From NCBI GenBank assembly GCA_038087875.1, contig CM075995.1, forward strand, positions 5,954,001 through 6,018,000: 64,000 nt of DNA, read 5' to 3'. A program made the position numbers and the translations under genes. Below the pieces are notes generated by a model. The model saw nothing but the letters and a program-made list of their open reading frames with translations, was not told the origin of the DNA and ran no database searches. This DNA comes from Malacoraja senta (taxonomy: Eukaryota). Position 1 is the stretch's first letter, and every line of letters starts with the position of its first letter. Positions 3,838-45,847 of the stretch are shown here, piece after piece.

Positions 3838-4069
3838 GTTAATTGTACTGCAAATAAGAAAGTCAGAATGCAGAGTCTGTTCAAAGAGTGAAGGAAATGT
3901 AAATCATGACAATGACCCTTGCAACCTCTCCCAGTAAAAGCAAGTTAATTTCACCAAAAACATTCATTGTGAAACAGTTGTGTGCAGAAACCATCTCAGT
4001 GGTTTACAGCAATGCAGTCAAAAGGGTGATTGGCAGTGAAATTACCTGGTCATTCCTACTTTAGTTCAA

Positions 4070-4370
4070 TTAAGTTTAGTTTAGAGATGGAAACAGGCCC
4101 TTTGGCCCACCGAGTCTGCATCGACCAGCGTTCCCCACACACTTGCATTATCCTACACACACGAGGCACAATTTACAATTATACCAAGCCAATTAACCTA
4201 CAGACCTGTATGTCTTTGTAGTGTGGGAAGAAACCGGAGATTCCAGAGAAAACCCACGCAGGTCACGGGGAGAACGTGCAAACTCCACACTGACAAGCAC
4301 CCGTAGTAAAGATTGAACCCGGGTCTCTGGCGCTATAAGGAAGCAACTCTACCACTGTGACACCATGCTG
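4070..4370 (-). mobile_element. HE1-type SINE
   Basis: Colinear with the copy at 2058-2370. Confidence 0.85.
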
Positions 4371-4741
4371 CCCCACTTTGTCTGTGAACACTGCCCTAAC
4401 CTGATAGTATAACCTAGTTCCATTGTCAATCAATTGCACCTTGATGACCATTGATCATGGTTTACATTCCACCATTTGCTTTAATGAAAGAGTTGACATT
4501 ATAGTCATAGAAGTATACAGCACAGAAGCAGACCCACCATATCCACCATGACCATCAAGCACTCTTCTATGTGAATCCAATTTACCAGCACCAGGTCTGC
4601 GATGTCATTGCAATTTACCTGCTCATTGAGATACTTCTTAAATGTTGGAACATCTCTTGCCTCCATCTCTTCAACTTGTGCAATCCAGATTCTAACCATG
4701 CTCTGGGTGGGTCTTTTTTTCTCAGATCTTTCTCAGGTCTT

Positions 4742-4883
4742 GGTGGCGTAGCGGTAGAGCAACTGCCTTACAGTGCCAGAGACCCGGGTTCAATCCTGAT
4801 TATGTGTGCGTGTCTGTACAAAGTTTGTATGTTCCCCCCTTTGAACTACGTGGGTTTCTCCGAGCAGTTTCCTCCCACACTCC
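4742..4883 (+). mobile_element. HE1-type SINE, 5' part (truncated by the CR1 insertion)
   Basis: A box ggtggcgtagcggtagag and B box gggttcaatcc. Confidence 0.8.
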
Positions 4884-7800
4884 AATAGACAATAGACAAT
4901 AGTAGGCCATTCGGCCCTTCGAGCCAGCACAGCCATTCACTGTGATCATGGCTGATCATAGACATTCAGTACCCTGTTCCTGCCTTCTCATCATATCCCC
5001 TGACTCCGCAATCTTTAAGAGCTCTATCTAACTCTCTCTTGAAAGCATCTAGAGAATTGGCCTCCACTGCCTTCTGAGGCAGCAAATTCCACAGATTCAC
5101 AATTCTCTGGGTGAAAAAGTTTTTCCTCATCTCCGTTCTAAATGGCCTACCCCTCATTCTTTAAATGTGGGCCCTGGTTCTGTACTCCAACAATATCGGG
5201 TACATGTTTCCTGCCTCTAGCATGTCCAATCCCTTAATAATCTTATATGTTTCAATAAGATCCCTCTCATCCTTCTAAATTCCAGAGTATACAAGCCCAG
5301 CAGCCGCTCCATTCTATCCACATATGACAGTCCCGCCATCCCGGAAATTAACCTCGTGAACCTACGCTGTACTCCCTCAATAGCAAGAATGTCCTTCCTC
5401 AAATTTGGAGACCAAAACTGCACACAATACTCCAGATGTCGTCTCATTAGGGCCCTGTACAACAGCAGAAGGACCGCTTTGTTCCTATTCTCAGCTTTTT
5501 TCACTCTGCTGTACCTGCATGCTTACTTTCAGTGTGTGATGGACAAGGATACCCAGATCTGTTGTACTTCCCCTTTTCCTAACTTGACAGCATTCAGATA
5601 ATAATCTGCCTTCCAGTTCTTGCTACCAAAGTGGATAAGCTCACATGTATCCACATTAAACTGCATTTGCCATTCACGCAACCTGTCCAAGTCACCCTGC
5701 ATCCTCATAGCATCCTCCTCACAGTTCACACTGCCACCCAGCTTTGTGTCAGCTGCAAATTTGCTAATGTTACTTTTAATCCCTTCATCTAAATCATTAA
5801 TGTATATTATAAATAGCTGCGGTCCCAGCATCAAGCCTTGCGGTACCCCACTAGTCACTGCCTGCCATTCTGAAAGGGACTCGTTAATCCTTACTCTTTG
5901 TTTCCTGTCTGCCAATCCATTTTCTATCCATGTCAGTACCCTACCCCCAATACCATGTGCTCTAATTTTGCCACTAATCTCCTATGTGAAAGTCCAGGTA
6001 CACTACATCCACTGGCTCTCCCGTGTCCATTTTCCTAGTTACATCCTCAAAAAATTCCAGAAGATTAGTCAAGCATGATTTCCCCTTCTTAAATCCATGC
6101 TGACTTGAACCGATCCTGTTACTGCTATCCAAATGTGCCGCTATTTCATCTTTTATAATTGACTCCAGCATCTTCCCCACCACCAATGTCAGGCTAACTG
6201 GTCTATAATTCCCTGTTTTCTCTCTCCCTCCTTTCTTAAAAAGTGGGATAACATTAGCTACCCTCCAATCCACAGGAACTGATCCTGAATCTATAGAACA
6301 TTGGTAAATGATCACCAATGCGTCCACGATTTCTAGAGCCACTTCCTCAAGTACCCAGGGGATTTATTCAGCCTTCAGTCCCATCTGTCTACCAAACACC
6401 AATTCCTGCCTAATGTGAATTTCCTTCAGTTCCTCCGTCACCCTAGGTCCTCTGGCCACTAATACATCTGGGAGATTGTTTGTGTCTTCCTTAGTGAAGA
6501 CAGATCCAAAGTACCTGTTCAACTTATCAGCCATTTCCTTGTTCCCCCATAATAAATTCACCTGTTTCTGTCTTCAAGGGTCCAACTTTGGTCTTTACTA
6601 TTTTGTTCCTCCTTATGTACAGAAAGAAGCTTTTACTATCCTCCTTTATATTCTTGGCTAGCTTTCCTTCGTACCTCATCTTTTCTCCCCGTATTGCTTT
6701 TTTAGTTATCCTCTGTTGCTCTTTAAAAGTTTCCCAATCCTCTGTCTTCCCACTCATCTTTGCTATGTTACACTTCTTCTCTTTTATTTTTATACTGTCC
6801 TTGACTTCCCTTGTCAGCCAGGTCGCCTCTTACTCCCCTTAGAATCTTTCTTCCTCTTTGGAATGGACTGATCCTGCACCTTCTGTATTATTCCCAGAAA
6901 TACCTGCCATTGTTGTTCTACTGTCATCCCTGTTCAGGCCTCTTTCCACTCAACTTTGGCCACCTCCCTCCCTCATGGCTCCATAGTCCCCTTTGCTCAA
7001 CTGTAATACTAACACATCCGATTTTCCCTTCTCCCTCTCAAATTGTAGATTAAAACATCATATTATGGTCACTACCTCCTAATGGTTCCTTTACCTCGAG
7101 TTCCCTTATCAAATCCGGTTCAATACACAACACTAAATCCAGAATTGCCTTCTCCCTGGTAGGCTCCAGTACAAGCTGCTCTAAGAATCCATCTTGGAGG
7201 CACTCCACAAACTCCCTTTCTTGGGGTCCAGTACCAACCTGATTTTCCCAGTGTACCTGCATGTTAAAATCTCCAATAACCACCGCAGCATTACCTTTGC
7301 GATATGCCAATTTTAAGTCTTGATTCAACTTGCACCCTATATCCAGGCTACTGTTTGGGGGCCAGTAGATAGGGTCTTTTTACCCTTACAATTCCTCAGT
7401 TCTATCCATACTGACTCTACATCTCCTGATTCTATGTCACCCCTTGCAAGGGACTGAATTTCATTCCTTACCAACAGGGCTACCCCACCCCCTTTGCCCA
7501 CCTGTCTGTCTTTTCGATAGCACGTATACCCCTGAATATTCAGTTCCCAGCCCTGGCCCTCTTGCAGCCATGTCTCTGTAATTCCCACAACATCATACTT
7601 GCCTCAAGCTCATCCACTTTATTTCTAATACTTTGTGCATTCATATATAATACTTTTAATCCATTACTCACCTTGCCTTTCACATTGATTCCTATTTCAC
7701 TTGTCCATACTCTCCTTTCCCTTCGTGAGCTTTCTGCCCCATTAATTCTGGTGTCTTTCTTAACTTTTCCTATACTCTCCTTCGCTTTAACTCCATCCTT

Positions 7801-8540
7801 ATATTTCCAATTTGTCCCCTCCCCCCCCACTATTTAGTTTAAACCCACCCGTGTAGCAGTGGAAAACCTGCCTGCCAGAATGCTGGTCCCCCGCCTGTTA
7901 AGGTGCAACCTGCCCCTTTTGTTTAATTCACCCTTACCCCAAAACAGATCCCAGTGGTCTAAGAATTTAAATCCCTGCCTCCTGAACCAGCTTCTCAGCC
8001 ACACATTCAGATCCGCTATCTCCCTGTTCCTGCCCTCACCAGCACGAGGAACTGGAAGCAAACCGGAGATAACCACCCTGGAGGTCCTGCTTTTCAGCTT
8101 TCTTCCGAGTTCTCTGAGGTCACGCTGCAGAATCTCTTTCCACTTCTTCCCGACGTCATTTGTGCCGACATGCACTACCACTTCCGGCTGCTCACATTCA
8201 TTCTTGACGATGCCCATGACGTCCTGGATACTGGCACCAGGGAGGCAACACACCATCCTTGAATCCCGCCTGTTGCCGCAGAAACCCCTGTTTGTACCTC
8301 TCAAGAACAGGTCCCCGACTACCACGGCTCTGCCATGACGTCTGTCTCTTCGGCTTTGCTTCAGAGCCATGTTTTGACTCGCAGACCTGTCCCCCGCTCA
8401 GAATGGCAGTGTCTTCTGTCCCAACAGCTTCCAAGAGGGTGAACCTGTTTTCAAGAGGTACATCCCCCGGGGTCTGCTGTACTCTAAGCTTCCTTCTCTT
8501 CCTCCTCATCACCCACCTTCTCTTTTCCGGTACCTCATCC
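4884..8540 (-). mobile_element. Near full-length decayed CR1/HER1 LINE (ORF1 SGNH esterase domain plus ORF2 APE-RT)
   Basis: ORF 7834-8370 has VVVGD...CCLPGA...VVVHVGTNDVG...LHLNRRG. ORF2 fragments include ITETWL, IGDFN, GSDH, NYRPVSLT and SGVPQG, with multiple frameshifts. The 3' tail is at 4884. Confidence 0.93.
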
Positions 8541-8544
8541 ATGC

Positions 8545-9655
8545 TGGTCGTGATGCCTCTCTATCCTAACTCCATTTATCTGTATTTGGCTCAAATCCTA
8601 CTATGCCTTTCTTATCTACAAATCTGTCCAAATACCTTTTAACATTGTACTTGCATCTGTCTCTACCACCTCCTCTGGCAGCTTGTTCCTCATGACCACC
8701 ATCCTCTGTATTAAAAATTTACCTCTCATGTCTCATTTAAATTTCTCCCCTCTCACCTTAAACCTGTGTTCTATCGTTCTGGAATCCCCTGACCTGGGAA
8801 AAAGACTCTCCTATCTATGTCCCTCATAATTTAATAATCTTTTGTTAAGCCACCCCTCAACTTCTACTTTGTGATATGCTGCTGAAGCCAGGCGATTCTC
8901 TGCGTGCTGGTCCCAGATGTGGATCTGCTATCACTGTTAACGGCTTGATTGTAATCATGTATCGTCCGTTCATTGACTGGATAGCATACAACAAAAAAGC
9001 TTTTCACTGTACCTCAGTTCACGTGACAATAATAAACTAAACTATACCTGTTCCAATAAGAACAAACCTGATAAATACAGCCTTTATTCCAACATTCTGG
9101 TAATTTTCTTCATCAATGTTCCAAATGTGGTCTCACCAATGTTTTTTTGACATTGAATGTACAATGACTTCCCAATTCTTGAATGAATTGATCTACAATG
9201 GCAAGCCCAGGAAGGATTTGGTTAACATATAAGCATTTGAAGGCTCTGGAGCCTAGAAGGATGAGAGAGGATCTCATTGAAACTGAACGTATAATGAAAA
9301 GCTTAGATCAAATGGACGTGCAGTGGATGTTTTCAGTAGTGGGAGAGTCTGGGACAAGAGGGAATAGCCTCAGATTAAAAGGATGTACATTTTTGAATAG
9401 AGATGAGGAGGAATTTCTTTAGCCTGAGGGTGGTGTATCTGTGGAATTTATTGCCACAGACAGCTGTGAAGGCCAAAGAATTGGTTACTTTTAAAGCAGA
9501 GATTGATAGGTTCTTGATTAGTAAGGACGTTAAAGGTTACTGAAGAAAGCAGGAGAATTGGGTTGAGAGGGAAAAATAAATCTGCCTTGATTGAATGGTT
9601 GGGTAGACTCGTTGAGCCAAATGGCCTAATTCTGCTCCTATATCTTATGGTCTAA
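8545..9655. mobile_element. Cluster of old LINE 3' fragments: CR1 (-) about 8545-8865, Rex-type tail (+) about 8930-9045, CR1 (+) about 9243-9652
   Basis: Similarity to the 3' ends of other copies in the window. ORF 9198-9422 has LEPRRMREDLIET...GESGTRG. Confidence 0.7.
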
Positions 9656-10599: not shown

Positions 10600-11192
10600 G
10601 TCTGTTTAAAACTTGTTTTCACCTAGCTGACAATGGATTGCTTCCTTGATCATCGTTACTTTTTTGTGTATCTTTCATTTCTGTGTTCTATCTCTCTATA
10701 TCGCCGTCTATATCTCTCGTTCCCCTTTCCCCTGACTCAGTCTGAAGAAGGGTTTGATCCATTCTTCTTCCACAGATGCTGCCTGTCCCACTGAGTTACT
10801 CCAGCATTTTGTGTCCATCTTTGGTGTAAACCAACATCTGCAGTTCCTTCCTACACAGAATCTTTCTTATGTTCTATATACTATCCTGAAACTGAATTCT
10901 GAAATTCCTAAGTAAAATAATTTGACCATTTTCCAGTTGGAGAAATGTTCACAAATGCAAATTAGAGAATGGATTAAAAGATCTGAATTTTGAAAAGGGA
11001 AGAGAATGGTGTAAAAAATTACAATAGACTATTAAAGTGTAAACTCATGCACGATGTTCCTTCTGCAATGTTAAAATGGTCTTGCAGGTCCCAACCCTAA
11101 ATGTCACCTATCCTTGTTCTCCGGAGAAGCTGCCTGACCCGCTGAGTTACTCCAACACTTTGTGTTTTTTTTGTAAACCAGCATCTCCAGTT
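10600..11192 (+). mobile_element. Two copies of the hammerhead-motif short repeat (about 10600-10857 and 11085-11192)
   Basis: cagtctgaagaagggt...cagatgctgcctgtccc...gagttactccagca...gcagttccttcctacaca family sequence. Confidence 0.75.
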
Positions 11193-11670: not shown

Positions 11671-13000
11671 AATAGTAAGATTAAACGAGAACTTACCAGT
11701 TTGAAGTTTGATCTTTATTTTATGAGGAGTTACGTTGAGGGATTATGTGAATAGAAGGCCGTCAGCCCGCATGCGCGTCAATCTTCAAAGCAGCAGTGTG
11801 AAATCACAGATAAGTCTTTGAACTGAATATCGTAAGATTCGAGAAAACTAGAACTACCAGCTGATCTTTATGAGAGGGTTGGGAGTGGAGGGCACGTAAT
11901 CCCTCAACGTAACTCCTCATAAAATAAAGATCAAACTTCAAACTGGTAAGTTCTCGTTTAATCTTACTATTTTACTTCGGAGTCACGTGAGTGACTACGT
12001 GAAGATTTTGAAGCTCTGTGATTTCATGCCGTGGAACGAGTCCATGCATCACTCACTGCATCAATTGACCAAAGATGAGTGAACATTAATAATGCATTCA
12101 GACATGACATAGATTTAGACATGCCGATGCTTTTTAATGAACAAATGACAATAGAGTTGGCAAATCTAATTTGAGACCTGATGCCCCTGGTCTGCTCCAC
12201 TTGACTAAGCCATGAACATAAATAGTTGTTTTGCCTGCAGATGTAACCATCCTGTCTAGTCGCAGCTTATGCAATGACTGGACCCATTGCGCTGAACCAG
12301 CACCATGAACATAACTACTTTGTGAGTGAGTTTGACCAAGGACAGGGATGTAGCTGGAGCTCTCCGACGAAGCGGCGTCAGCACAATGTTAACCTCCCGT
12401 ATCTCTGCGTACCTGGGCCTGGAAGGTTTGAGTTGAAGATACCCTTCATGAATCTGGATATCAGAGGGTGAGACCCGCCAGAGTGGGTCCCGCTCCCTGC
12501 AGAAAATATGGAGAGAAGGCACGTTTGGCACAGTTAATGGTACTATAACTAATTTTTGTCAAAGACCCATTCGAAAATGAACTCCCAGATGTCAGTTATT
12601 CATGCCGTATATATGTAAATTAGCATTTAAACAAAATACTTCCCATCTCCTGATGACAAAATGTACTGCTTATCTGGTGTTATCCCTGCAATCTGCAGTG
12701 AGCACGTCCATGGTTCGGCCTAACAATCCGAGCTGCAGGAACAGAAGGAAATAGGCAACGTTTCGGGCCGAAACCCTTCTTCAGACTGATGTAGGGTGGG
12801 GAGAAGAAAGGAAAAAGGAATAGGAGGAGCCCGAGGGCTGAGGGAGAGCTGAGAGGGGGAGGAGACAACAAGGGCTACTGGAAATTGGAGAAGCTGTTCC
12901 TTCTTAAGCCTTTTAGCATAATTATTTTGACTATACTTCCAAATGAACTTCTTTATGTACTTCACACCCTCCAGGGTTCCAATCCCTCCTTCAGGCCATA
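11671..13000 (-). mobile_element. DIRS-type tyrosine-recombinase retrotransposon remnant (3' terminus/ICR plus decayed YR)
   Basis: A 79-bp near-perfect inverted repeat (11671-11749 / 11893-11971) contains ggtaag, as at DIRS 3' ends. Minus-strand fragments RFMKGIFNS, RPRYAEI, SLSLVKLTHKVVM and SAQWVQSLHKLRLD...LVKWSRPG resemble DIRS recombinase. Confidence 0.75.
12743..12893 (-). mobile_element. Hammerhead-motif short repeat inserted in the DIRS remnant
   Basis: Minus strand reads CTGAAGAAGGGTTTCGGCCCGAAACGTT at 12757-12784. Confidence 0.8.
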
Positions 13001-14410: not shown

Positions 14411-14610
14411 NNNNNNNNNNNNNNNNNNNNNNNNNNNNNNNNNNNNNNNNNNNNNNNNNNNNNNNNNNNNNNNNNNNNNNNNNNNNNNNNNNNNNNNNNN
14501 NNNNNNNNNNNNNNNNNNNNNNNNNNNNNNNNNNNNNNNNNNNNNNNNNNNNNNNNNNNNNNNNNNNNNNNNNNNNNNNNNNNNNNNNNNNNNNNNNNNN
14601 NNNNNNNNNN
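14411..14610. other. Assembly gap (200 N)
   Basis: Run of n characters. Confidence 1.
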
Positions 14611-19925: not shown

Positions 19926-20196
19926 TTCTAATGTTACCTGTATTGAATTCAGTTATCATGATTTTATCGGTTCTTTAGATTACCCAAATTTTAATCAGTT
20001 TTGCTAAATAGAATTGACCAACTTGCATCTGCAACATCATTCCTGTTCTTATTACTTGAATTATTTTATTAGGAAGGCATTGTGTGATTACAATATTGTT
20101 TCCCTGCAGTTGTACCTGCCAAGTTGTAAGTTTTCAGACAAAGCAGTCTTTTGTTACCATTTTGAAAACTCAAAACCAGGGCTCTATTGTAATTAG

Positions 20197-21416
20197 TAAC
20201 TGACTGGGACAGGCAGCATCTCTGGAGAGATGCTCTGGGTGATGTTTCGGGTTGAGACCCTTCTTCAGACTGATGTCAGGGGAGTGGGCGGTACAGAGAT
20301 AGAATGTAGTCGCAAAATGTAAAACTGGTGAGAGAATTGGGAAGGGGGAGGGGAATGGAGAGAGAGGGAAAGCAAGGGCTACTTGAAGAAGTTGTTCTCT
20401 CTCCGACGAGAGTTCAGCAACATCCTCTCTCACTGCTCCCCCTCTGTGATTCCTCCTGCGTGGAGCTGATTGTGGACTTTAGAAGGGCACAACAACCAAG
20501 GATGTACACGCCACTGGGGATCAATGGGACTACTGTAGATAGGGTGAGCAGCTTTAAATACCTGGGAGTCCACATCACAGAGAATCTGACATGGACAACA
20601 CACTGCCACACTGGTGAGAAAGGCAAGGCAGCGCCTTTACCACCTCAGGTAGGTGACGAAATTCAGAGTCTCTCTGAGGACCGTTCAATCCTTCTACTCT
20701 GGTGCTGTAGAAAGCATCCTGACCGGAAACATCTCTATCTGGTATGGCAACAGCTCTGCCCAGGACAGGAAGTCTCTGCAGAGAGTAGTGCGTTTGGCCA
20801 AAAGCATCACGGGAACTACACTTTCCCCCCCACCCCCTCCTGCAGGACCTATACACCAGGAGGTGCAGATCCAGAGGCTGCAGGATCATGAAGGACCCCT
20901 ACCAGCCCAGCAACGGACTGTTCCAGCTGCTGCGGTCAGGCAAACGCCTCCGCTGTCACATAGCAAAAACAGAAAGGCTGAGACGGAGTTTCTTCCCACA
21001 GGCCATCAGGACTGTAAACTCTAATCTCACCAGGGCGTAAATACTGTTGCGTCTTTTTTTAATGTAAATGCTGATTCTGTTCTGTTCCGTTGTTTTGCAC
21101 AATCCCGCAAGCATTGCCACTTTCATTTCACTGTACATCTTGTTTGTGTATATGACAAATAAAGTTGACTTGACGGGCCTTCGACTCTGCGACCACGTCC
21201 CCCCCTCCCCCCTCCAGTTCTTCCACCAGTTTTACTGTCTCCGACTACATTTTATCTCTGTACCGCCCACTCCCCTGACATCAGTCTGAAGAAGGGTCTC
21301 GACCTGAAACGTCACGCATTCCTTCTCTCCGGAGATGCTGCCTGTCCCGCTGAGTTACTCCAGTATTTTGTGTCTACCTTCGATTTAAACCAGCATCTGC
21401 AGTTCTTTCCTACACA
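20197..21416. mobile_element. Penelope-like hammerhead-motif element with inverted ends and a 15-bp TSD, containing a nested Rex fragment
   Basis: Minus copy at about 20197-20392 and plus copy at about 21205-21416. CTCTATTGTAATTAG is duplicated at 20182-20196 and 21417-21431. Confidence 0.85.
20460..21173 (+). mobile_element. Rex1/Babar LINE 3' fragment
   Basis: ELIVDFRR...VSSFKYLGVHITENLTW and FYSGAVESILTG, ending in an aataaagttgacttgac tail. Confidence 0.88.
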
Positions 21417-22042
21417 CTCTATTGTAATTAGATTGCTGTTGAAAAATTTAGCATTGTGAAGCGGGAATTTTTAAAGTTAGCTGTCTTAGGGACGAAGCAA
21501 AATTGATGTTTTCCATTGGTCAAGGAAATAACTAATTGAACGAATGTTGTGTACAAAACAACATTTATGTTGACCAAATACCATTTTGCTGCAGAAAATT
21601 ATCTATTTTGTCAGAAATATTGAACATGAAGTAGGTGGAATGATGTGGGCAGCTTGTCAGGTTTTCTCATTCTAATATATAAAATACTCACCATCCCCAT
21701 TAAAATTTAAGTTATCAATTAATTGTTCTTTTGTGTTTATTCGCTATAAAGCATTGTATGCAAGACAGTTCTGTACCTTTATCCATCGATGTCAAACTTG
21801 CCAAGATCCAAGATCTTAGCAAAATCACTCTACGTTGACAAGAAGCAGCCTTATAATCGGAGGTGTTTTATTGGTTGGTATTAATGTTCTCTATCTCAGT
21901 TTCGTGTTTTTGTTAACTGACCAGTAAAATCTTATCATGGAATGAAGTGAATTTATTAACAGATGGAAATTTATAGGCTATCACTATTTATCACAATGAA
22001 TAACTTTTGCCATATGATGCCTATTAACTCTTTTTTGCAATC

Positions 22043-22497: not shown

Positions 22498-23359
22498 ATC
22501 TTACCTGTGTTATTAAATAAGTGCTTTTTTTTTTCCCTTATTGACTTGATTGCTGCTCGCGCTTTTAAAAAAAAAACTTTGACTCATAAACAAAACATTT
22601 CAATAATCATTTGAGTATGTTATTTGTAAAATATTGCTATTATTTACATCTGACGACTGGAGAAGCTATTGGTATTGAATTTAAATAATTTAAAACTTGA
22701 TTACACTGTTAAAATCTATGTAAATGCATTGTTTCTGGTTAACAGTTAAAGATTTATGTATGTTTATTATCACACATGAAATTAGGATTGCAGTCATTAC
22801 ATTCTGAGAGTCAGGTTTTGTTATGTACCATGCTTTTTTAAATGGGAACCAGACATTTGTACAGAATGTTCAGTTGCAAACTGACTGGTAATGTTTTTGC
22901 AAGAAAGGCAGCTAAAAGAATTGTCGTAACGTGCAGCAAAAATACTGGTTGGTGCCGGTGAGAGAAATCAAATTGAACCCACATGGAACATCAGAAATTA
23001 CATGCCTTTGGATAAGGCCTTTGATGAGGTAAAAAGTGTATTCTCTTTAGGAGCATGATGCATAAGGAAGGAATTTCAAAAGTTGTGGCCTGGATATCTG
23101 AAGGTGACCAAAGATGGAACAAAGGGAAATCAATGTTTCAGAGCACTTTGACATTCTTGTTTTTTTGGAGGAACCTCTTGCATTTTGTTTACATTTTTGT
23201 ATAGTGTAGGAAAATTTGAATCCAATTTATCTTTCTGATTTGCATGGCTTTGAATTGGGCAAGTCCAATCTTTCAAACCACCTTCACCACGTCCTCACTA
23301 TTCAAGTGGTGTGCGAGTAGACGTCTCAAAGTGCAGCGCTGCTGAGCTCTTCATCCGTA

Positions 23360-23486
23360 GGCAAAAATGCTGGAGAAACTCAGCGGGTGAGGCAGCATCT
23401 ATGGAGTGAAGGAAATAGGCGATGTTTCGGGTCGAGACCATTCTTTGCTTCGATTTTCCAGCACCTGCACTTCCTTCTTAAATAAC
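23360..23486. mobile_element. Hammerhead-motif short element with inversion and 13-bp TSD
   Basis: Flanked by CTCTTCATCCGTA (23347-23359) and CTCTTCATCTGTA (23487-23499). Confidence 0.8.
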
Positions 23487-24335: not shown

Positions 24336-27300
24336 AATGAATGAATGAATGAATGAATACTTTATTGTCATTATAACATGTAAACATGTACAACGAAATT
24401 AGAAATGCCAACCAGTCAGTGCACCATTCACACATTTTCTTAGAGCAAAAGTCTAAGATAAACAACTAAAATAAATAACATGAAAAAAAACAACACATTC
24501 TTCTGTCTATTTCACAGTCCCTTTGGTGTGTAGCGCACCTGTACTCATTTGGTGGCTACATTAAGTGTATTTATTGCTGTTGGATAAAAACTGTTTTTGA
24601 GTCTGTTTGTCCTTGTCCTCATTGATCTGTACCGTCTGCCTGACGGCAGCAGTACAAACAGGGAGTGACCGGGGTGGAAAATGTCCTTTATGATCTTCTT
24701 GGATTTTTTGAGACAGTGGGAACTGTGTTGGTCCTTCAAGGTGAGGAGAGGGCAGCCGATAATCTTCTGGGCGTTGTCAATTGCCCTCTGGAGCGCTTTC
24801 CTCTTAGCCGCTGTGCAGCTGGTGTACCATACGCATACACAGTATGTTAAGATGCTCTCAATTGAGCATCGATAAAAGGACAGCAGCAGTCTCTGGGTGA
24901 TGTTGTTCTTCCTGAGCACCCTCAGGAAGTACAGTCTCTGCTGGACCTTTTTCAGCAGCGCAGAGGTGTTCACGCTCCAAGTCAGGTCCTCCTCAATGTG
25001 GATTCCCAGGAAGCGGAAATCCGCCACCCTTTCCACACAGTCCCCATTGATGATTAGTGGTGTAATGTCCGTTTTCTTCTTCCTGTAGTCAATTATGAGC
25101 TCCTTGGTCTTTGAGGTGTTGAGGAGCAGGTTATTTTCTCCACACCACCCTGTCAGCTGCTCCACCTCATCCCTGTAGGCGTACTCATCCCCCCCAGAGA
25201 TGAGCCCCACCACCGTGGTGTCATCCACGAATTTGACAATGGTGTTACTGTGGTGGGCGGGGGTGCAGTCATATGTGTAGATGGTGTAAAACAGGGGGCT
25301 CAGCACGCAGCCCTGTGGAGAGCCAGTACTGAGGCTGAGGGCCGTAGATGTGTGACGGCCCACTCTGACTCTCTGACTGCGACCTGACAGGAAGCTCTTT
25401 ATCCACATGTAGGTGGAGTGTGGAAGTCCCAGGTCCCCCAGTTTGTCCACCAGTTTGTGGGGAAGGATGGTGTTAAAAGCAGAGCTGTAGTCCACAAAGA
25501 GCATCCGCACGTAGCTCCCCCGCTGCTCCAGATGTGACAGTGCAGCATGGAGGGCTGTGACTACAGCATCCTCTGTGGATCTATTCGCTCTATACGCAAA
25601 CTGGTGGGGGTCAAAGCTTCGGGGCAGGAGTGATGTGATGTGACCCCGGACCAGTTTTTCAAAACACTTCATCACCACTGGTGTGAGTGCGACTGGCCGG
25701 TAGACGTTGAGACTGGAAATGTGGGGGTTTTTGGGCAAGGGGACTATGGTGGAGGACTTCAGACAGGATGGGACAGTGGACTGGGCCAGAGACTGGTTGA
25801 AAATCCTCGTAAAGACTCCAGCCAGCTGGTCTGCGCAGTCCTTCAGCACGCGTCCAGAAACGCCGTCGGGTCCAGCAGCCTTCCTCGGATTAATGGCCCG
25901 CAGCGTGCGCCTCACCTCATGCTCCTCTATTTTGAAGGATAAGCTGCTGTGGACCATGTGGTGTGATATGGCTGTCTCTGGTGGCTCCACTTCAAAGCGA
26001 GCAAAGAAGAGGTTCAGCTCCTCTGCCAGCGAGGCGTCACCTTCAGCAGCTCCAAGGTTGGTTTTGTAGTTGGTGAGATACTGGATCCCCTGCCACACCT
26101 GCCTGCTGTTGTTACTGTCCAGGTGGTCCTCTAACCTCCTTCTGTAGTCTGATTTGGCCTCTCTGATGCCTCTCTTCAGGTTAGCTCGGGCCGTGCTGTA
26201 TAAAGCCCTATCGCCAGACCTAAAAACGGTGTTTCTCTCTTTTAACAGCCGCTGGACCTCCCTGGTCATCCAGGGCTTCTGGTTGGGGTAGACCTGGATG
26301 CGTTTGTCCACTGTGACAGTGTCCATGCAGTTTTTAATGTAACATAGTACACTGTCTGTGAACACCTCCAGGTCCTGGTGTTCAAACACATCACAGTTGG
26401 TCCTGTCGAAGCAGTCCTGCAGCTGCTGAGAGGCGCCATCAGGCCAAGTTGTGATGGTAGGCGCAGTTTTCCGGAGGGGGGCATATGCAGGAATTAAAAG
26501 CAGGGACATATGGTCAGACTGGCCCAGGTGTGGTAGTGGTCTAGCCCTGTAGCCCAGCTTGATGTTGGAGTAGACCTTGTCCAATGTGTTAGCTCCTCTT
26601 GTAGCACATTTAACATGCTGATAGAATTTGGGGAGCATTGCCTTCAAGTCCGCGTGATTAAAGTCCCCTGCTATGATGTGAACAGCGTCAGGATATGTGC
26701 TCTGATGGCTGCTAGTGCTACCATACAATTGTCCGATAGCCGAGTTCGCATTAGCATCCGGTGGTATGTATATCACAGTTATCATGACGACAGTAAACTC
26801 TCTAGGGAGATAAATGGTCCTGCATTTATCAGTCACATACTCCAGGTCCGGGGAGCAGTGACTGTCTACAATCATTGTGTTAGTACACCAGTTGTTGTTC
26901 ACGTACACACAGAGCCCTCCTCCTCTGCTCTTACCAGAGTCTCTTGTCCTGTCATGACGCTGTGCGGTGTAGCCTGTTAGCTCGATAGCAGAGTCCGGAA
27001 TGAGTGAATGAAGCCATGTCTCCGTGATCAACAGAATGCAGCTGTCCTTCACGGCGTTGTTAGCTGCAGTTTGTAGCCTCAGTTCATCCATCTTGTTAGC
27101 GAGGGATCTGGCGTTCATGAGAAACAGGCTGGGAAGCGGTGATTTGAGTGGCTGCCTCCGTAGCCTGGCTAGCGCGCCGGCCCTGCAGCCTCGCTTTTTC
27201 CTTCTCTCTGCGCCGCCTTCGCCTCCTCCCCGCTGGGATGGTAATCCACGGAGAGCCGGGACTCCTCGCTATGTCCACCGGGATCCTATGTAAACTGACA

Positions 27301-27800: not shown

Positions 27801-29139
27801 TTCCCTGAGTCTAATACTGGCCTCAGCTGTTAAGTAATGGCAGTGGATTTCCTCACCAATGGCTCAATAGGAGAGAAAAATAGTCTGGAGGAACGGATCT
27901 CTGCATTAAAGAAAAACGCAACATGGATAGTTTTCAAGGAAAGCAACTCTTCCATAACACGGGGGTCATCTGAAGAAGGGTCCCAAACTGAAATGTGATC
28001 GGTCCAGTTCCCCTCAATGGATATGTTTCGTCATTAGTTAGTTTTTTACTCAAGATTATGCTATTTGTGGTCTTTTGGGGAATGGGATTGCTCTGTGATC
28101 TGGTGTCAGAATTTGCGATGAGTTTTTATGGAGACATAAGGAGCTGCAGAGGCTCATTACAGGAAAAGACATAAAGGTCATAGATAGGCCAGATTTAGAG
28201 TCTATCCATATCCTCTAGAGATGCTGCGTGACTCGCTGACTTACTCTGCTACTTTGTGTGCGATTTTTTTTATTAGCGTTTGTACTCTTGTCTTGATTGC
28301 TTTATCAATTGTTTTGGAACATCAGGATCTTTTCTAAACTGGAGAAAAAATAACAATGTTCTTGCATCTTGCTCAGTAAATGATTGAAATGCTTGATTTG
28401 TATGAAACCACTTTTTGTATTAATTACTTGTTCCTTCAATCAGCCGATTAGCATGTTTTTCGGAAGAATGTTGCTCGGTGCATTGCCAGGATGTTGCCTG
28501 GAACGGAAGGCTTTAGTTATAAGGAGAGAGTTTAGGAGCTGAGGAGTGACCTTACAGAAAGAGGCAAATTTATGAGGAACAGCTCCATCCAAGACCACAA
28601 GATATTGTGGTCTTGAATGGATAGCTTGTAAAAAAAAACTGTACCTTGCTCTATGTGACAATAATAAATCTAAACTTTATCCGTCCTTTTCATAGTGATT
28701 TTATTTTACAGCCCGCATTTTTACTAATGCCACAGATGTTAGCTGTGGTCAAAGAGAATATAAAAGTTGCACAACAGGCACTTCACATCATTCTTATTTG
28801 TTTTACCAGGAAGTTCTTTGCAGTCATTGTCTTGGTTGATCGGCAAATTGTATTGACAAGATGTTCTCTTGCAGTACTGTTTTGTTCTAAGATTTTCTGC
28901 TCTTAATAAAAGGCTTGGTGTTCCTCAGTACTTCAACTAATTGTCTGGCAAAAAGCAAGTGCAACTCGCATGGGAAGAGGGTGAGTTTGATTGGCAGCCA
29001 AGGCTCTATTTTGATTTGGTTCTCTGAGTCTATTGTAACATGAAGGACTCTGATATTCACTTTTAAGCACATCCTGCTCCACAAAAGGCTATGTGAACCA
29101 CAGGATAGTGTTAGTAAAGTTTAAACACATGAGTTATAT

Positions 29140-29768: not shown

Positions 29769-30160
29769 ATGCTTAATGCTTTCTATGCAAACTTTGAAAG
29801 GGAGAGCTTCAGTATACCTTCTTGGACCCCCACATCCTCAAGCGATACTGTAGTCTCCTTCACCAAGGCTGATGTCAGAAGATCATTCATGAGGGTGAAC
29901 CCTGAGAAAGCGGCTGCCCTGATGCTGTACCTGGCTGCGTTCTTAAGACCTGCATGGAGTTTTTGCGAGCATCTTCAACCTCTCTTTACTACGTTCCGAT
30001 GTTCCCACCTGGACATCAATAATGCCGATCAAAGGACATTAATAATGTCAGTACTCAAGAAGAGTAAGGTGATATGCTTACTGACTACTTAATGACTCCT
30101 GACTGTTTGCCATTAACGTCCATGATGATGAAGTGTTTTGAGAGGTTAGTTATGACGCAA
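29769..30160 (+). mobile_element. Old Rex1/Babar RT fragment
   Basis: LNAFYANFE...ADVRRSFMRVNPEKAA and a downstream MKCFERL motif. Confidence 0.75.
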
Positions 30161-30161
30161 T

Positions 30162-30285
30162 TTGAAGAAGGATCCCATCCCAAAATGTCACCTGAAGAAG
30201 GGTCTTGACCAGAAACGTTGCCTATCCATTCCCCATACAGATGCTGCCTGACCTGCTGAGTTACTCCAATGCCTAGTTTTGCCCA
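30162..30285 (+). mobile_element. Hammerhead-motif repeat with a tandemly duplicated core
   Basis: ttgaagaaggatcccatcccaaaatgtcac is immediately followed by ctgaagaagggtcttgaccagaaacgttgcc. Confidence 0.7.
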
Positions 30286-31854: not shown

Positions 31855-33504
31855 CTAGACTAAGTGGGACCTGTTGGTCCCCCAACGCAACCCGTTTCCC
31901 AATGCAATATTCCACCACTCACCCGTTCCCCAATGCAACCCGTCCCCCCAACGCAATATTGCACCACTCACGCATAGACCCCAACTATGCAGGCACGGCT
32001 CATTTTCCCATATCCCCCAGTATTCCCTCCCCCTCCTCTTTGCCCTCCCTCTTCTTTCCCCTCACCTCCCTCACCTCTCCCTCCCTCTCCCCTACCCTCA
32101 GTCACTCCCTCCCCCCCCCATAACTCCTCTCTCCTCCCTAGCCCCCTCCTATCCCTATATCCCCCGCACCTCAACTCCCCCTATCCCTCCTGATCTCCCC
32201 CACTGCCCTCTCCCTCTATTCCCCACTCCCTACCTCTCCCACTCCCCTCTCCTCTTCCTCTATTCCCCCTCCTCCCCCACTCTCCTCCCCTCCCCACTTT
32301 CCCACTCTCCCTCCCTACCCGTTCCTCTCCCTCAATCCCCCCACTCTCCCTCCTCACCTCCCCAGGATTCTTCCCCTCTCCTCCCCAATCCCTCTCTCCC
32401 TCTCCTTTCCCCTGCTCTCAGTCACTCCCTCCCTCCCTCCCTCCATAAAAATCAGCATCTGCAGTTCCTTCCTCCACAGGACATTCATTGTTAGCTGCGG
32501 TTTAGGTCCCGTTGACTTGACGATTGGACCAGTTTGCATTGTGTGTGTGTGTGTGTGTGTGTGTGTGAGTTACTCAAACTCCACGCAAACTGCTCGGCCA
32601 CCCTGCAAGCCAACTCTCCCTCCCTCCCTCTGCCCACTCTGGCTCAGCCGCCGCTTGGCCCATCTCTGCCCGACCGCCCGCTGCTGCCGCTCGGCCCGTC
32701 CCCGCCCTGCCCCCTCACCTGCCTGCTCGCTGCCGCCGCCGGGCCACAGGGGGAGGGGGGGGGTGGGAGATGGAGTCTGTGATTGTCACTGTGGGCACCA
32801 CGAGTTTCGATGAGCTGGTGGAGAAGATCTCCAAGAAGGTCATGAGGGTGAGTTACCACAACGGCGGTGGAGGAGATGGACCCGGGGCGACAGGTAGATG
32901 GGGAGAGGAGTGACTGAAAAGGGAGAGAGAGATTGAACCAGGGTCTCCACTGGGTCCCCACTGGACACCCCCCCCCAAGGCCGCCACCAGTGGTGGGGGA
33001 GACGATAAACAAGTTACAGTCAGTGCGTGGCGCTGACTGAAGGAATCTGCATATGTGCGTGTTTACGAAAGATCCACAGCAACTCGCACATGGTAAAAAT
33101 CAATCTTTATTACATAGGCAAACAGGAACATATCAACTGCCAGCTACTAGCATCTGGCTCCGCTGGCCTGTGTGTGAGAGAGAGACAGTAACTGACCTTG
33201 TGTAGTACTGTAATACCATGTAGAGGGTGGCATGCACATATGTGTGGTGACGGTTATAACTGGCATGAATTAATAAGGGTTAATCTACAGCGCGGTTTTT
33301 AAGATATTTAAATCTCGATAACTTTTACAATATACCACTGATTGGACCAAAACGTGTTGCACTCGCAGCACAGGAGAACGGTGAGTAACCTGGCAAAAAA
33401 TCGTAGTGCTATCGCATGCCGTTTTTGCACAAATAGAAAGACCGTGCAAACCGGTAGAGCACAAGATCAGAGTTTTAGTTATGTATAGATAGATAGTAGA
33501 TAGA
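31855..33504 (-). mobile_element. Non-autonomous Helitron 2 with captured cargo
   Basis: Minus-strand 3' end is hairpin GGGACC-aaca-GGTCCC then ACTTAGTCTAG. The 5' end (plus strand cagagttttagttatgtatagataga...) parallels Helitron 1 (cagagttttaaaagtatatagataga). The exact 5' boundary is uncertain within 33489-33504, and the base after CTAG is not the canonical T. Confidence 0.82.
32770..32853 (+). pseudogene. ALG13: ALG13 exon-1-like fragment with splice donor, inside a Helitron
   Basis: Translates to MESVIVTVGTTSFDELVEKISKKVMR followed by GTGAGT. Compare the ALG13 N-terminus MKCVFVTVGTTSFDDL (glycosyltransferase 28 C-terminal family). No further ALG13 exon was seen. Confidence 0.85.
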
Positions 33505-33870: not shown

Positions 33871-36100
33871 AGGATGGAGAGTGACATTGTTAATTCAGAA
33901 ACAAGGGTTCTGAACTTAAAGAAAGGTAACTTTGAGGGTATGAGCCGTGAATTGGCCAAGATAGGCTGGCAAGTGATTCTTAAAGGGTTGACGGTGGATA
34001 TGCAATGGAAGGCATTTAAAGACTGCATGGATGAACTACAACAATTGTTCATCCCAGTTTGGCAAAAGAATAAATCAGGGAAGGTAGTGAATCCGTGGAT
34101 AACAAGGGAAATCAGGGATAGTATCAAAACAAAAGATGAAGTGTACAAATTAGCCAGAAAAAGCAGCCTACCAGAGGACTGGGAGAAATTCAGAGTCCAG
34201 CAGAGGAGGACAAAGGGCTTAATTAGGAAAGGGAAAATAGATTATGAAAGAAAAGTGGCAGGGAGCATAAAAACTGACTGCAAAAGCTTTTATAGATATG
34301 TGAAGAGAAAATGATTAGTTAAAACAAATGTAGGTCCCTTGCAGTCAGAAACAGGTAAATTGATGATAGGGAACAAGGACATGGCAGACCAATTGAATAA
34401 CTACTTTGGTTCTGTCGTCACTAAGGAAGACATAAATAATCTGCCGGAAATAGCAGGGGACCGCGGGTCAAATGAGATGGAGGAACTGAGTGAAATCCAG
34501 GTTAGCCGGGAAGTGGTGTTAGGTAAATTGAATGGATTAAAGGCCGATAAATCCACAGGGCCAGATAGGCTCGATCCCAGAGTACTTAAGGAAGTAGCCC
34601 CAGAAATAGTGGATGCATTAGTGATAATTTTTCAAAACTCCTTAGATTCTGGAGTAGTTCCTGAGGATTGGAGGATAGCTAATGTAACCCCACTTTTTAA
34701 AAAGGGAGGGAGAGAGAAAACAGGGAATTACAGACCAGTTAGTCGAACATTGGTAGTGGGGAAACTGCTGGTCAGTTATTAAAGATGGGATAGCAGCACA
34801 TTTGGAAAGTGGTGAAATCATTGGACAAAGTCAGCATGGATTTACGAAAGGTAAATCATGTCTGACGAATCTTATAGAATTTTTCGAGGATGTAACTAGT
34901 AGAGTGGATAAGGGAGAACCAGTGGATGTGTTATATCTGGACTTTCAGAAGGCTTTTGACAAGGTCCCACATAAGAGATTAGTATACAAACTTAAAGCAC
35001 ACAGTATTGGGGGTTCAGTATTGATGTGGTTAGAGAACTGGCTGGCAAACAGGAAGCAAAGAGTAGGAGTAAACGGATCCTTTTCAGAATGGCAGGCAGT
35101 GACTAGTGGGGTACCGCAAGGCTCAGTGCTGGGACCCCAGCTATTTACAATATATATTAATGATTTGGACAAGGGAATTGAATGCAACATCTCCAAGTTT
35201 GCGGATGACACGAAGCTGGGGGGCAGTGTTAGCTGTGAGGAGGATGCTAGGAAGCTGCAAGGTGACTTGGATAGGCTGGGTGAGTGGGCAAATGCATGGC
35301 AGATGCAGTATAATGTGGATACATATGAGGTTATCCACTTTGGTGGCAAAAACAGGAAAGTAGACTATCATCTGAATGGTGGCAGATTAGGAAAAGGGTA
35401 GATGCAACGAGACCTGGGTGTCATGGTACACCAGTCATTGAAAGTAGGCATGCAGGTGCAGCAGGCAGTGAAGAAAGCGAATGGTATGTTAGCATTCATA
35501 GCAAAAGGATTTGAGTATAGGAGCAGGGAGGTTCTACTGCAGTTGTACAGGGTCTTAGTGAGACCACACCTGGAGTATTGCGTACAGTTTTGGTCTCCAA
35601 ATCTGAGGAAAGACATTCTTGCCATAGAGGGAGTACAGAGAAGGTTCACCAGACTGATTACTGGGATGTCAGGACTTTCATATGAAGAAAGACTGGATAG
35701 ACTCGGCTTGTACTCGCTAGAATTTAGAAGATTGAGAGGGGATCTTATAGAAACTTACAAAATTCTTAAGGGGTTGGACAGGCTAGATGCAGGAAGATTG
35801 TTCCCGATGTTGGGGAAGTCCAGGACAAGGGGTCACAGTTTAAGGATAAAGGGGAAATCTTTTAGGACCGAGATGAGAAAAACATTTTTCACACAGAGAT
35901 TGGTGAATCTCTGGAATTCTATGCCACAGAAGGTAGTTGAGGCCAGTTCATTGGCTATATTTAAGATGGAGTTAGACGTGGCCCTTGTGGCTAAAGGGAT
36001 CAGGGGGTATGGAGAGAAGGCAGGTACAGGATACTGAGTTGGATGATCAGCCATGATCATATTGAATTGCGGTGCAGGCGCGAAGGGCCTAATGGCCTAG
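33871..36100 (+). mobile_element. Young 5'-truncated CR1/HER1 LINE (ORF2 RT)
   Basis: Four consecutive ORF pieces across 33874-36037 with LDFQKAFDKVPH, SGVPQGSVLGP and KFADD, and few disruptions. Confidence 0.95.
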
Positions 36101-36163
36101 CCAATGGTGGCTACACAGGCTCTCATATAGGCACATGATAATCACGTGTAGGCAGAGAAGATT

Positions 36164-36957
36164 ATAGTGTCATACAGTGATACAATGTCGAAACAGGCCC
36201 TTCGGCTCAACTTGCCCACACTGGCCAACATGTCCCAGCTACACTAGTCGTACCTACCTGTGTTTGGTCCATATCCCTCCAATCCTGTCCTATCAATGTA
36301 CCTGTCTAAATGTTTCTTAAATGTTGGGATGGTCCCTGCCTGCACTACCACCTCTGGCAGCTTGTTCCATAAACCCACCACCCTTTGTGTGAAAAAGGTT
36401 ACTACTCAGATTCCTATTAAATCTTTTCCCCTTCACCGTAAACCTATGTCCTCTGGTCCTCGATTCGCCTACTCTGGGCAAGCGATTCTGTGCATCTACC
36501 CGATCTATTCCTCTCATGATTTTATACACCTTTATAAGATCACCCCACATCCTTCTGCGCTCCAAGAAATAGAATCCCAGCCTACTCAACCACTCCCTAT
36601 AGCACAGACCCTCTAGTCCTGCCTACATCCTTGTAAATCTTCTCTGTACCCTTTCCAGCTTGACAATATATTTCCTATAACACGGTGCCCAGAACTGAAC
36701 ATTATACTCTAAATGAAGCCTCACCAACGTCTTTTACAACTACAACATGACCTCCCAATTTCTATATTCAATACTCTGATTGATGAAGGCCAATGTGCCA
36801 AAAGTATTTTTGACCACCCTATCTACCTGTGACTCCACCTTCAAGAAACCATGCACCTGTACTCCTAGATTCCTCTGCTCTACAACACTCCCCAGAGCCC
36901 TACCATTCACTGTGTAGGTCCTGCCCATGTTAGACCTCCCAAAATGCAGCATCTCAC
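36164..36957 (-). mobile_element. CR1 3' fragment
   Basis: LHFGRSN...LKVESQVDRVVK and LERRRMWGDLIKVYKIMRG. Confidence 0.88.
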
Positions 36958-36969
36958 TGCAACATTAGT

Positions 36970-38755
36970 GATAGAAACATAGAAAATAGGTGCAGGAGTA
37001 GGCCATTTGGCCCTTCGAGCCTGCACCGCCATTCAATATGATCATGGCTGATCATCCAACTCAGTATCCCGTACCTGCCTTCTCTCCATACCCCCTGATC
37101 CCTTTAGCCACAAGGGCCACATCTAACTCCCTCTTAAATATAGCCAATGAACTGGCCTCAACTACCCTCTGTGGCAGAGAGTTCCAGAGATTCACCACTC
37201 TCTGTGTGAAAAGGTTTTTCCTCATCTCGGTCTTAAAGGATTTCCCCCTTATCCTTCAGCTGTGACCCCTTGTCCTGGACTTCCCCAACATCGGGAACAA
37301 TCTTCCTGCATCTAGCCTGTCCAACCCCATAAGAATTTTGTACGTTTCTATAAGATCCCCTCTCAATCTCCTAAATTCTAGCGAGTATAAGCCAAGTCTA
37401 TCCAGTCTTTCTTCATATGAAAGTCCTGACATCCCAGGAATCAGTCTGGTGAACCTTGTCTGCACTCCCTCTATGGCTATAATGTCCTTCCTCAGATTTG
37501 GAGACCAAAACTGTACGCAATACTCCAGGTGTGGTCTCACCAAGACCCTGTACAACTGCAGTAGAACCTCCCTGCTCCTATACTCAAATCCTCTTGCTAT
37601 GAAGGCCAACATACCATTCGCTTTCCTCACTGCCTGCTGCACCTGCATGCCTACTTTCAATGACTGGTGTACCATGACACCCAGGTCTCGCTGCATCTCC
37701 CCATTTCCTAATCGGCCACCATTTAGATAATAGTCTGCCTTCTCGTTTTTGCCACCAAAGTGGATAACCTCACATTTATCCACATTATACTGCATCTGCC
37801 AAACATTTGCCCACTCACCCAGCCTATCCAAGTCACCTTGCAGTCTCCTAGCATCCTCCTCACAGCTAACACTGCCCCCCAGCTTAGTGTCATCCGCAAA
37901 CCTGGAGATGTTGCTTTCAATTCCCTCGTCCAGATCATTAATATAAATTGTAAATAGCTGGGGTCCCAGCACTGAGCCTTGCGGTACCCCACTAGTCACT
38001 GCCTGCCATTGTGAAAAGGACCCGTTTACTCCTACTCTTTGCTTCCTGTTTGCCAGCCAGTTCTCTATCCACATCAATACTGAACCCCCAATACCGTGTG
38101 ATTTAAGTTTGTATCCTAATCTCTTATGTGGTACCTTGTCGAAAGCCTTCTGAAAGTCCAGATACAACACATCCACTGGTTCTCCCCTATCCACTCTACT
38201 AGTTACATCCTCGAAAAATTCTATAAGAGTCGTCAGACACGATTTACCTTTCGTAAATCCATGCTGACTTTGTCCAATGATTTCACCACTTTCCAAATGT
38301 GCTGCTATCCCATCTTTAATAACTGATTCTAGCAGTTTCCCCACTACCGATGTTAGACTAACTGGTCTGTAATTCCCCGTTTTCTCTCTCCCTCCCTTCT
38401 TAAAAAGTGGGGTTACGTTTGCTACCCTCCAATCCTCAGGAACTACTCCAGAATCTAAAGAGTTTTGAAAAATTATCATTAATGCATCCACTATTTCTGG
38501 AGCTACTTCCTTAAGTACTCTGGGATGCAGCCTATCTGGCCCTGGTGATTTATCGGCCTTTAATCCATTCAATTTACCCAACACCACTTCCCGACTAACC
38601 TGGATTTCACTCAGTTCCTCCATCTCCTTTGACCCGCGGCCCCCTGCTATTTCCGGCAGATTATTTATGTCTTCCTTAGTGAAGACGGAACCAAAGTAGT
38701 TATTCAATTGGTCCGCCATATCCTTGTTCCCCATGATCATTTCACCTGTTTCTGA
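36970..38755 (-). mobile_element. Young 5'-truncated CR1/HER1 LINE with a 12-bp flanking duplication
   Basis: 494-aa open RT ORF at 37256-38740. TGCAACATTAGT occurs at 36958-36969 and 38756-38767. Confidence 0.95.
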
Positions 38756-38988
38756 TGCAACATTAGTTTAACTTGGCATTGTTGTTTGTAACAGATAATG
38801 TGGTTTGAAAGGCTTGCTGCTGTGCACTACTATGTTCTATGTTCCCGCAGCAAAATGAGCACTGTTACGGGCTCTCAATCTGCCGTTGGAGACGAGTCCT
38901 CCAAAGAATTCCCCATTCAATGGCGCCATCCCGATCATTCATTGAGTTTAATTTTAAACTACTTTGCTGTCTGTACCCACCTGGTAAA

Positions 38989-45808: not shown

Positions 45809-45847
45809 TAGCTATATACTGGCAATCATTCTTCTTCCCTCAGAACT

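Follow-up and report, generated by a model that had tools for sequence, protein, structure and literature searches.

Short hammerhead-motif repeats of Malacoraja senta: most probably the truncated ends of a Neptune-type Penelope-like element

The short repeats with a hammerhead-like core which are scattered through the genome of Malacoraja senta are almost certainly truncated ends of a Neptune-type Penelope-like element of ~3.5 kb. They were studied in a stretch of 64,000 nucleotides of contig CM075995.1 (in the following "the window"), where the original prediction had taken them for a non-autonomous Penelope-type or retrozyme-like family, as well as in a genome sample of 120 evenly spaced 10-kb stretches (1,198,400 bases), and were followed upstream by four successive DNA searches of the 1.94-Gb genome. 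The genomic copies have a fixed 3' end in common and stop at different positions upstream. Upstream of the motif the longer ones reach a GIY-YIG endonuclease with a CxxC between its motifs, a CX4CXXC linker, a thumb and an RT core, by which the link to Penelope reading frames, proposed as a check, is established. RVT_1 matches the copy L032 with E 3e-7, while the Pfam GIY-YIG matches stay below the cut-off (E 0.008-0.09). L039 harbours a stop-free frame of 511 aa extending from the RT to the endonuclease; this frame sits 110-130 nt before the motif (L039 and L141). Its closest named relatives stem from sharks, rays and skates (57-71%), with coral or mollusc sequences at ~42-50%, and its homologues carry PF00078 and PF01541. 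An RT followed by a C-terminal GIY-YIG with CCHH in a single frame is the arrangement by which an endonuclease-bearing Penelope-like element is recognised. The assignment to the Neptune type is made because of the CX4CXXC linker motif and not from an RT tree; a CX2-5CxxC linker is described as the mark of Neptune and Nematis, reduced in the latter (PMC8557442).

In L138 a hammerhead is present at each end, ~3.5 kb apart, and in both L138 and L145 the pseudo-LTRs form partial tandems. The element has a long proline-rich 5' region, and the likely start codon of the frame lies ~40 nt behind the tail. None of the loci read contains a fully intact element, the window itself contains no RT-endonuclease frame of it, and a search of PDB sequences with this frame gave no match at E<=1. 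We would like to note that several annotated host-gene isoforms of sharks, rays and skates include the element's frame, which likely reflects annotation artefacts or exonised copies. In the 1.198-Mb sample 25 of 39 matches to the endonuclease C-terminus have an arm of the repeat within 350 nt (14 have none), and 9, 9 and 3 arms of subfamilies A, B and C, respectively, are linked to the frame's end. An older subfamily had been considered a frame-less SINE since 0/50 of its arms are linked within 350 nt, yet this was rejected: 11 of 20 loci, fetched by their 3' UTR and including two duplicates, show remnants of the frame further up, beyond a longer 3' UTR. Thus, the young subfamilies and the older one tested all run upstream into the RT-endonuclease frame, and the notion of a non-autonomous family is not supported. 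Just 27 of the 499 arms in the sample still include the end of the frame, and short master copies are a possible additional source of stubs.

The motif itself is real. The exact pattern CTGANGA-N4..30-GAAAC occurs seven times in the window, compared with 1.14 expected, and none of 100 shuffles reaches seven; one of these matches, at 52440, lies outside the repeat family. With a profile iterated on genomic copies, 27 arms are detected in the window, which cover all 14 positions originally named; the reversed window, used as control, yields none. Both window and sample contain one arm per 2.4 kb; the proposed frequency of about one copy per 4 kb is correct since the sampled loci amount to one per 3.7 kb. 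The four copies initially called clear are not equivalent, however. The ones at 12784 (minus strand) and 49005 (plus strand) are the only window copies to pass a strict descriptor requiring both helices to be paired, whereas at 21286 a G-U replaces the pair G10.1-C11.1 and at 20241 (minus strand), where the sequence reads GAAACATC, the ACGT palindrome is lost.

The region 20182-21431, to which the prediction referred, extends exactly from one target site duplication (TSD) to the other, the 15 bp at 20182-20196 and 21417-21431 (both plus strand) being identical. It represents a single insertion made up of an inverted arm, ~100 nt of 5' body and a direct arm with tail, whose body was later split by a LINE. 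The inverted arm (20197-20388, minus strand) comprises the last codons of the endonuclease, the 3' UTR and the hammerhead, is 84-86% identical to the 3' ends of the near-full genomic copies L138 and L149 and shares 134 of 159 nt with the direct arm; its core runs from 20268 to 20241, shows a G to A exchange in helix III, and the arm ends before the tail. At a short shared motif it meets a piece of the 5' body (20383-20457, plus strand; 83-98% to the body of L137, L138 and L149) which starts ~45 nt behind the tail. This piece had been considered an inverted part of the LINE, which was rejected as it matches the element body. Beyond the LINE, the body resumes at 21180-21201 (plus strand), a stretch too short for BLAST and recognised by eye from comparison with the body of L137 and L149. 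The interrupting LINE 3' fragment (20462-21176, plus strand), identified by genomic matches and protein likeness, is presumably Rex1/Babar-like. Its C-terminal part shows 41-46% likeness to that of a 907-aa LINE frame elsewhere in the window. As 40 genomic matches span about 20462-21174 and the left arm is present in none of them (0/40 scored), an arm-LINE-arm composite was rejected as a mobile unit. The direct arm (21202-21416, plus strand; 92-95% to GIY-YIG-linked loci) consists of 3' UTR, hammerhead, a conserved downstream hairpin and the tail of ~36 nt (21380-21416, plus strand), the latter delimited by bimodal 3' ends and by loose ends 35-36 nt apart. Its minimal hammerhead (21284-21315, plus strand), assigned from the sequence and the consensus in Fig. 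S3 of PMC4209133, is composed of a helix I of 2 bp, CUGAAGA, an extra A, a helix II of 4 bp with tetraloop, GAAA and the palindrome. The cut predicted after 21313 agrees in register with this sequence. Synthesis of the insertion probably began at the tail, then jumped to the body zone and was finally joined to the opposite-strand product at a shared 10-nt motif.

All other copies in the window were found with the profile. On the plus strand they comprise old diverged arms at 746-835 (CUGAUGA; E 6e-12) and 52334-52442, a weak, strongly diverged arm at 1896-1983 (E 0.005), an arm with tail and native upstream sequence whose core is partly deleted (10736-10857), an arm of an older subfamily which begins in helix II (11087-11192), an old arm at 27968-28261 in two pieces (27968-28011 and 28202-28261), two hammerhead starts in partial tandem (30158-30272), a fragment consisting of the tail only (32445-32477) and an old arm at 46244-46304. 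The minus strand carries an arm with an internal deletion which was absent from the original prediction (1090-1164), two 5'-truncated arms at 47594-47825 (47594-47649 and 47751-47825) and a subfamily B arm at 12743-12892. The hammerhead of the last is intact by the strict descriptor, its 3' part is missing and its upstream sequence includes the 3' UTR and extends as far as the last codons of the frame, this end having been read by eye. A fold-back copy at 23340-23482 is formed by a minus arm and a short tail piece. Head-to-head pairs are present at 38990-39248, with the tail on the minus arm, at 45961-46125 (subfamily B, flanked by a 14-bp TSD at 45955-45968 and 46122-46135) and at 50597-50822 (subfamily B, with the tail on the plus arm), the last joined at the near-palindrome TCAG-T-CTGA. 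Two plus-strand arms, one with an intact hammerhead which also passes the strict descriptor (48995-49112) and one with a mutated core (49652-49754), are contained in a 23-bp minisatellite (48570-49850). They share 40 nt of hairpin-like upstream sequence not native to the element and were probably duplicated along with the satellite. A tandem array of hammerhead units is not present in the window.

Besides these repeats, the window contains a stop-free LINE frame of 907 aa (24545-27268, minus strand) encoding an endonuclease, an RT and an ALKBH8_N-like C-terminal piece; it is a young copy, which we take to be Rex1/Babar-like. A Tc1/mariner element at 42595-45810, with 222-bp inverted repeats of 96% and the transposase N-terminus at 44779-45441 (minus strand), is broken by a CR1-like LINE at about 43123-44670. 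Two inverted CR1-like LINE copies (1328 nt at 95%) occupy 34345-38767, and many further CR1-like pieces are found throughout the window. A frame for a GDSL/SGNH esterase (7834-8397, minus strand) is likely a LINE ORF1, and the bases 14411-14610 are a run of 200 N.

The genome sample contains 499 arms at 326 loci, compared with none in the reversed control. Arms make up ~4% of the sampled bases and, if the sample is typical, the genome is estimated to contain ~8x10^5 arms at ~5x10^5 loci. The strict descriptor is passed by 31 sampled arms and by none in reversed sequence, corresponding to an estimated ~5x10^4 intact motifs genome-wide (95% range 34,000-71,000). A mixture model of the 258 motif-spanning arms, the 241 shorter ones being left out, resolves subfamilies ranging from 94% down to ~75% identity to their own majority.

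Both ends of the copies are informative. The 3' ends are bimodal, with 121 of 299 at columns 101-115 and 114 of 299 at columns 136-141, ~36 nt apart; longer copies continue through this tail of ~36 nt into the element body. Where two arms are separated by no more than 60 nt they are arranged head-to-head in 92 cases and tail-to-tail in 8, and in 71 of the 92 head-to-head pairs exactly one arm bears the tail (p 3e-8). Inverted truncated copies with a tail at one end have been described for Penelope-like elements (PMC8557442, PMC3846280). The TSDs are variable in length (15 and 14 bp in the window), and 28 of 151 solo arms possess an exact flanking repeat of at least 9 nt, some of these by chance.

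At the 5' side, ends are not enriched at the predicted cut, where columns 37-41 contain 13 of 491 compared with 11-19 in neighbouring windows, and the ribozyme does not define the copy ends. Instead, 126 of the 491 ends fall in columns 3-7 and 53 in columns 8-12, where C3 is column 11 and the columns near the start include alignment noise. In an anchored test, 119 of 192 copies with a whole core end within 10 nt upstream of C3, at a rate of ~0.1 per nt compared with ~0.01 further up; solo copies show this pile-up as well (89 of 154), and a comparable spread is displayed by controls whose true end lies 1-3 nt upstream. Among 97 short solo copies the native base is retained at a fraction of 0.88 at -1 and 0.38 at -5, approaching background at -6, so that the edge is staggered over -1 to -5 rather than sharp. 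Ten short TSD-bounded copies start at columns 7-12, and L138 begins at -2. In sequencing runs of related organisms, loose ends at -2 and -3 are among the commonest, as are those at the 3' tail sites; an entry at -5 represents the end of the reference's native sequence. PolyA reads of a related organism exhibit no peak of molecule begins or ends, although fragmented libraries show such peaks poorly. Reads of this run originate from copies inside host transcripts, 96% of them running on into unlike sequence with both strands about equally represented. At loci retrieved by tail and body together, the majority of body pieces break off 131-177 nt behind the tail and are in many cases followed by a new arm starting at the ribozyme edge, an arrangement suggestive of additional start sites and of template jumps. 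We would like to add that at eight places (L226-L229, L235-L238) the same tail-plus-body fragment occurs with the same flanks, nested in another repeated sequence.

These repeats are very probably 5'-truncated pseudo-LTR ends of the Neptune-type element, with or without the 36-nt tail, the stubs likely resulting from internal initiation at the tail and subsequent run-off. The element's own enzyme would start reverse transcription internally, at the tail, and the short copies would arise where synthesis runs off the RNA 5' end just upstream of the ribozyme. The RNA of the element would begin in TCAGT directly before the core and would therefore carry two copies of the initiation site. Starting at the 5' copy would give stubs of ~95 or 135 nt, and starting at the 3' copy longer copies truncated at random. 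Priming may occur on both strands of the cut target, which would lead to the fold-back pairs. In an element of the anole, synthesis has been reported to start internally at the tail and cleavage to be assisted by protein (PMC11167929). In D. virilis the promoter is located inside the pseudo-LTR, with the start site 46 nt upstream of an intron ending at helix I and not at the ribozyme (PMC2377424), while for a rotifer element an initiator-like TCACT has been proposed (PMC3846280). That the 5' pile-up is caused by the RNA 5' end we hold to be about evenly balanced. For the wider proposal, that the RNA starts at the front edge of the ribozyme and that priming at the 5' tail copy yields SINE-sized stubs from uncleaved RNA without any non-autonomous master, we see slightly less than an even chance.

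The 5' edge coincides, however, with the edge of the near-palindrome TCAG-T-CTGA at -5. This favours a different cause of the pile-up: the cDNA of this palindrome, or of the self-complementary helix II, might pair with opposite cDNA or with the target, whereupon synthesis stops or switches. In line with this, the pile-up reaches its maximum in head-to-head pairs, with a hazard of 0.23-0.24 at 5-7 nt, the junctions of subfamily B pairs can also lie within helix II (13 of 63, at columns 16-20), and palindromes have been reported at inverted junctions (PMC3846280). The pile-up of the solo copies argues against it, as do the body-to-arm junctions, in which second arms start at several places of TCAGT without an inverted partner. 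Pairing of the palindrome is possible but rather unlikely as the cause, and a cause other than either the RNA end or the palindrome appears unlikely.

As to the ribozyme itself, the subfamily majorities display the core elements CUGANGAH, GAAA and UH, the extra nucleotide, the G10.1-C11.1 pair, a palindromic helix III and a helix II of 4 bp closed by a YNCG tetraloop. The extra nucleotide, G10.1-C11.1 and the palindrome are listed as features of minimal hammerheads (PMC4209133). The prediction of a Penelope-type minimal type I hammerhead, in which a palindrome is all that is left of helix III, is thereby supported by the consensus in Fig. S3 of that paper, and the extra A before helix II, originally regarded as a weakness, is instead a hallmark of the motif. 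As anticipated, helix I comprises only 2 bp, position 2.3-1.3 being A-C, instead of the usual 3-5 bp; cases of 2 bp have been published (PMC4209133). The helix II variation between subfamilies preserves pairing, as proposed, but is one-sided: the helices show no covariation beyond U-A to U-G at 10.4-11.4 and 2.1-1.1. A scan with Rfam models gave no hammerhead at E<=1, just miRNA-like hairpins on fold-back copies. In the default predicted fold the core is buried, its purine run pairing with a downstream pyrimidine tract. An active-like fold is calculated to cost ~6 kcal/mol in four of five folded copies and 1.9 in the fifth, and the computed probability of helix II is <0.1 in most intact copies. 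The ribozyme is predicted to be weak on its own. Published minimal hammerheads do not cleave as monomers and do so weakly as dimers (PMC4209133), and the anole motif requires protein for cleavage and is dispensable for insertion (PMC11167929). An AUC before the core was rejected as a second cut site by reasoning, its geometry fitting neither helix I nor helix III.

All 11 core bases are kept in 91 of 258 arms; G12, which is part of a CpG, is replaced by A in 82 of the 248 copies that carry either purine at this position. Divergence at the C, G and T positions of the core equals that of base-matched downstream positions, while core A positions diverge less than downstream A (5.4% vs 9.1%). Inserted copies decay neutrally, with no selection on them for the ribozyme. 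Among five subfamily majorities, in contrast, none of the 11 core positions varies compared with 18 of 64 downstream columns (one-sided p 0.04), which is modest evidence for selection on the core in source elements. As a separate observation, decay of the ribozyme CpGs is lopsided, G to A exceeding C to T by 82:53 at columns 30/31 (p 0.016) and 83:46 at columns 35/36 (p 0.0014), while it is not at the CpGs of columns 25/26 and 73/74. The commoner change is the one predicted to kill the ribozyme, which might be due to source elements whose ribozymes are inactive, or to selection by the host.

The short helix I, the low helix II probability and the lack of both two-sided covariation and an Rfam match would suit a motif which only resembles a hammerhead and acts as a protein-binding or structural signal without catalysis. 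This we consider doubtful given the invariant core of the majorities, the location of the changes within the motif (at N7, loop II, H17, or preserving a pair) and the protein-assisted cleavage of the related anole motif (PMC11167929).

Less probable still is a true non-autonomous SINE-like or retrozyme family, in which dimeric hammerheads would cut and circularise short RNAs that are then copied in trans. Most copies do measure 95-135 nt with both ends defined, related DNA contains some head-to-tail joints of 132-136 nt, and according to a 2026 preprint (bioRxiv 10.64898/2026.07.22.740005), which includes a chondrichthyan family, animal retrozymes originated from pseudo-LTRs. However, the copies are dispersed: same-strand runs of arms in 1.2 Mb amount to 383 single arms, 47 pairs and 7 longer runs (6 triples and 1 of four), and long arrays are absent from this sample. 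No class of copies begins at the cut site, all subfamilies tested are linked to the RT-endonuclease frame, and the hammerhead is minimal whereas that of retrozymes is described as canonical (PMC7229834). Among the joints listed for the polyA run of a related organism, none is a circle joint at the cut. Splicing, by which short copies would derive from RNA joined at the ribozyme front edge as acceptor, was rejected as highly improbable: upstream sequence is pyrimidine-rich and ends in CAG in all subfamilies, a strong donor-like site lies 33 nt behind the tail, a D. virilis intron ends at helix I (PMC4209133) and one fold-back (L243, 1380-1870) is joined exactly from donor-like site to CAG on both arms, as expected of a spliced or back-spliced RNA, a single case, yet a join from the frame-end donor has 0 genome matches, that from the donor behind the tail is found in 2 of 12 junction matches, at one locus, the remainder being imprecise, and the ends spread over -1 to -5 instead of being fixed at -1.

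This kind of element is already published, and the family of this genome is a further case. A description of the family or of its 5'-edge pile-up was not found in the open-access literature searched. With the minimal hammerheads of 2014 (PMC4209133) the motif shares CUGANGAH, the extra nucleotide, G10.1-C11.1, the palindromic 15.2-16.2, the location in a flanking repeat and the occurrence as thousands of dispersed single copies, and with the Acropora Neptune motif of the same paper the 4-bp GGG helix II with a 4-nt loop. Its helices I (2 bp) and II (4 bp) are, however, shorter than most listed there, and the portions of table and alignment examined contain no cartilaginous fish. The 34,000-71,000 intact copies compare with ~4,000-9,000 in coelacanth and Xenopus (PMC4209133), a rough comparison as the descriptors differ; with ~4% of the sampled bases being arms, the hammerhead-motif load is among the largest reported for this size class. 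The Neptune clade as described (PMC8557442) has the same RT, CX2-5CxxC linker and GIY-YIG with CCHH as well as partial tandems, inverted 5'-truncated copies and a one-end tail of 30-40 bp. The present element, assigned to this clade by its linker and not by a tree, differs in its long proline-rich 5' region and in the extreme excess of stubs of 95-135 nt.

PAc, a Poseidon element of the green anole (PMC11167929), likewise has two internal start sites which define the tail and no reads ending at the cut; its hammerhead is dispensable for insertion. It differs in being described without a zinc motif in the linker and in its frame starting in helix II. The copy ends studied here, located at the two tail sites and the ribozyme front edge rather than at the cut, amount to an in vivo test of this in vitro result. 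Animal non-LTR retrozymes (PMC7229834; bioRxiv 10.64898/2026.07.22.740005) are, like the present repeats, short, non-coding, equipped with a type I hammerhead and tied to Penelope-like elements, and the family which the preprint reports from one chondrichthyan may be related to them. In contrast to retrozymes, which are described as tandem arrays with mostly canonical hammerheads and circular RNA (PMC7229834), the copies of this genome are dispersed or fold-back, carry a minimal hammerhead and are continuous with a coding element. If its RNA indeed starts at the ribozyme edge and internal priming yields the stubs, this would account directly for the origin of solo pseudo-LTRs and open a route to animal retrozymes.
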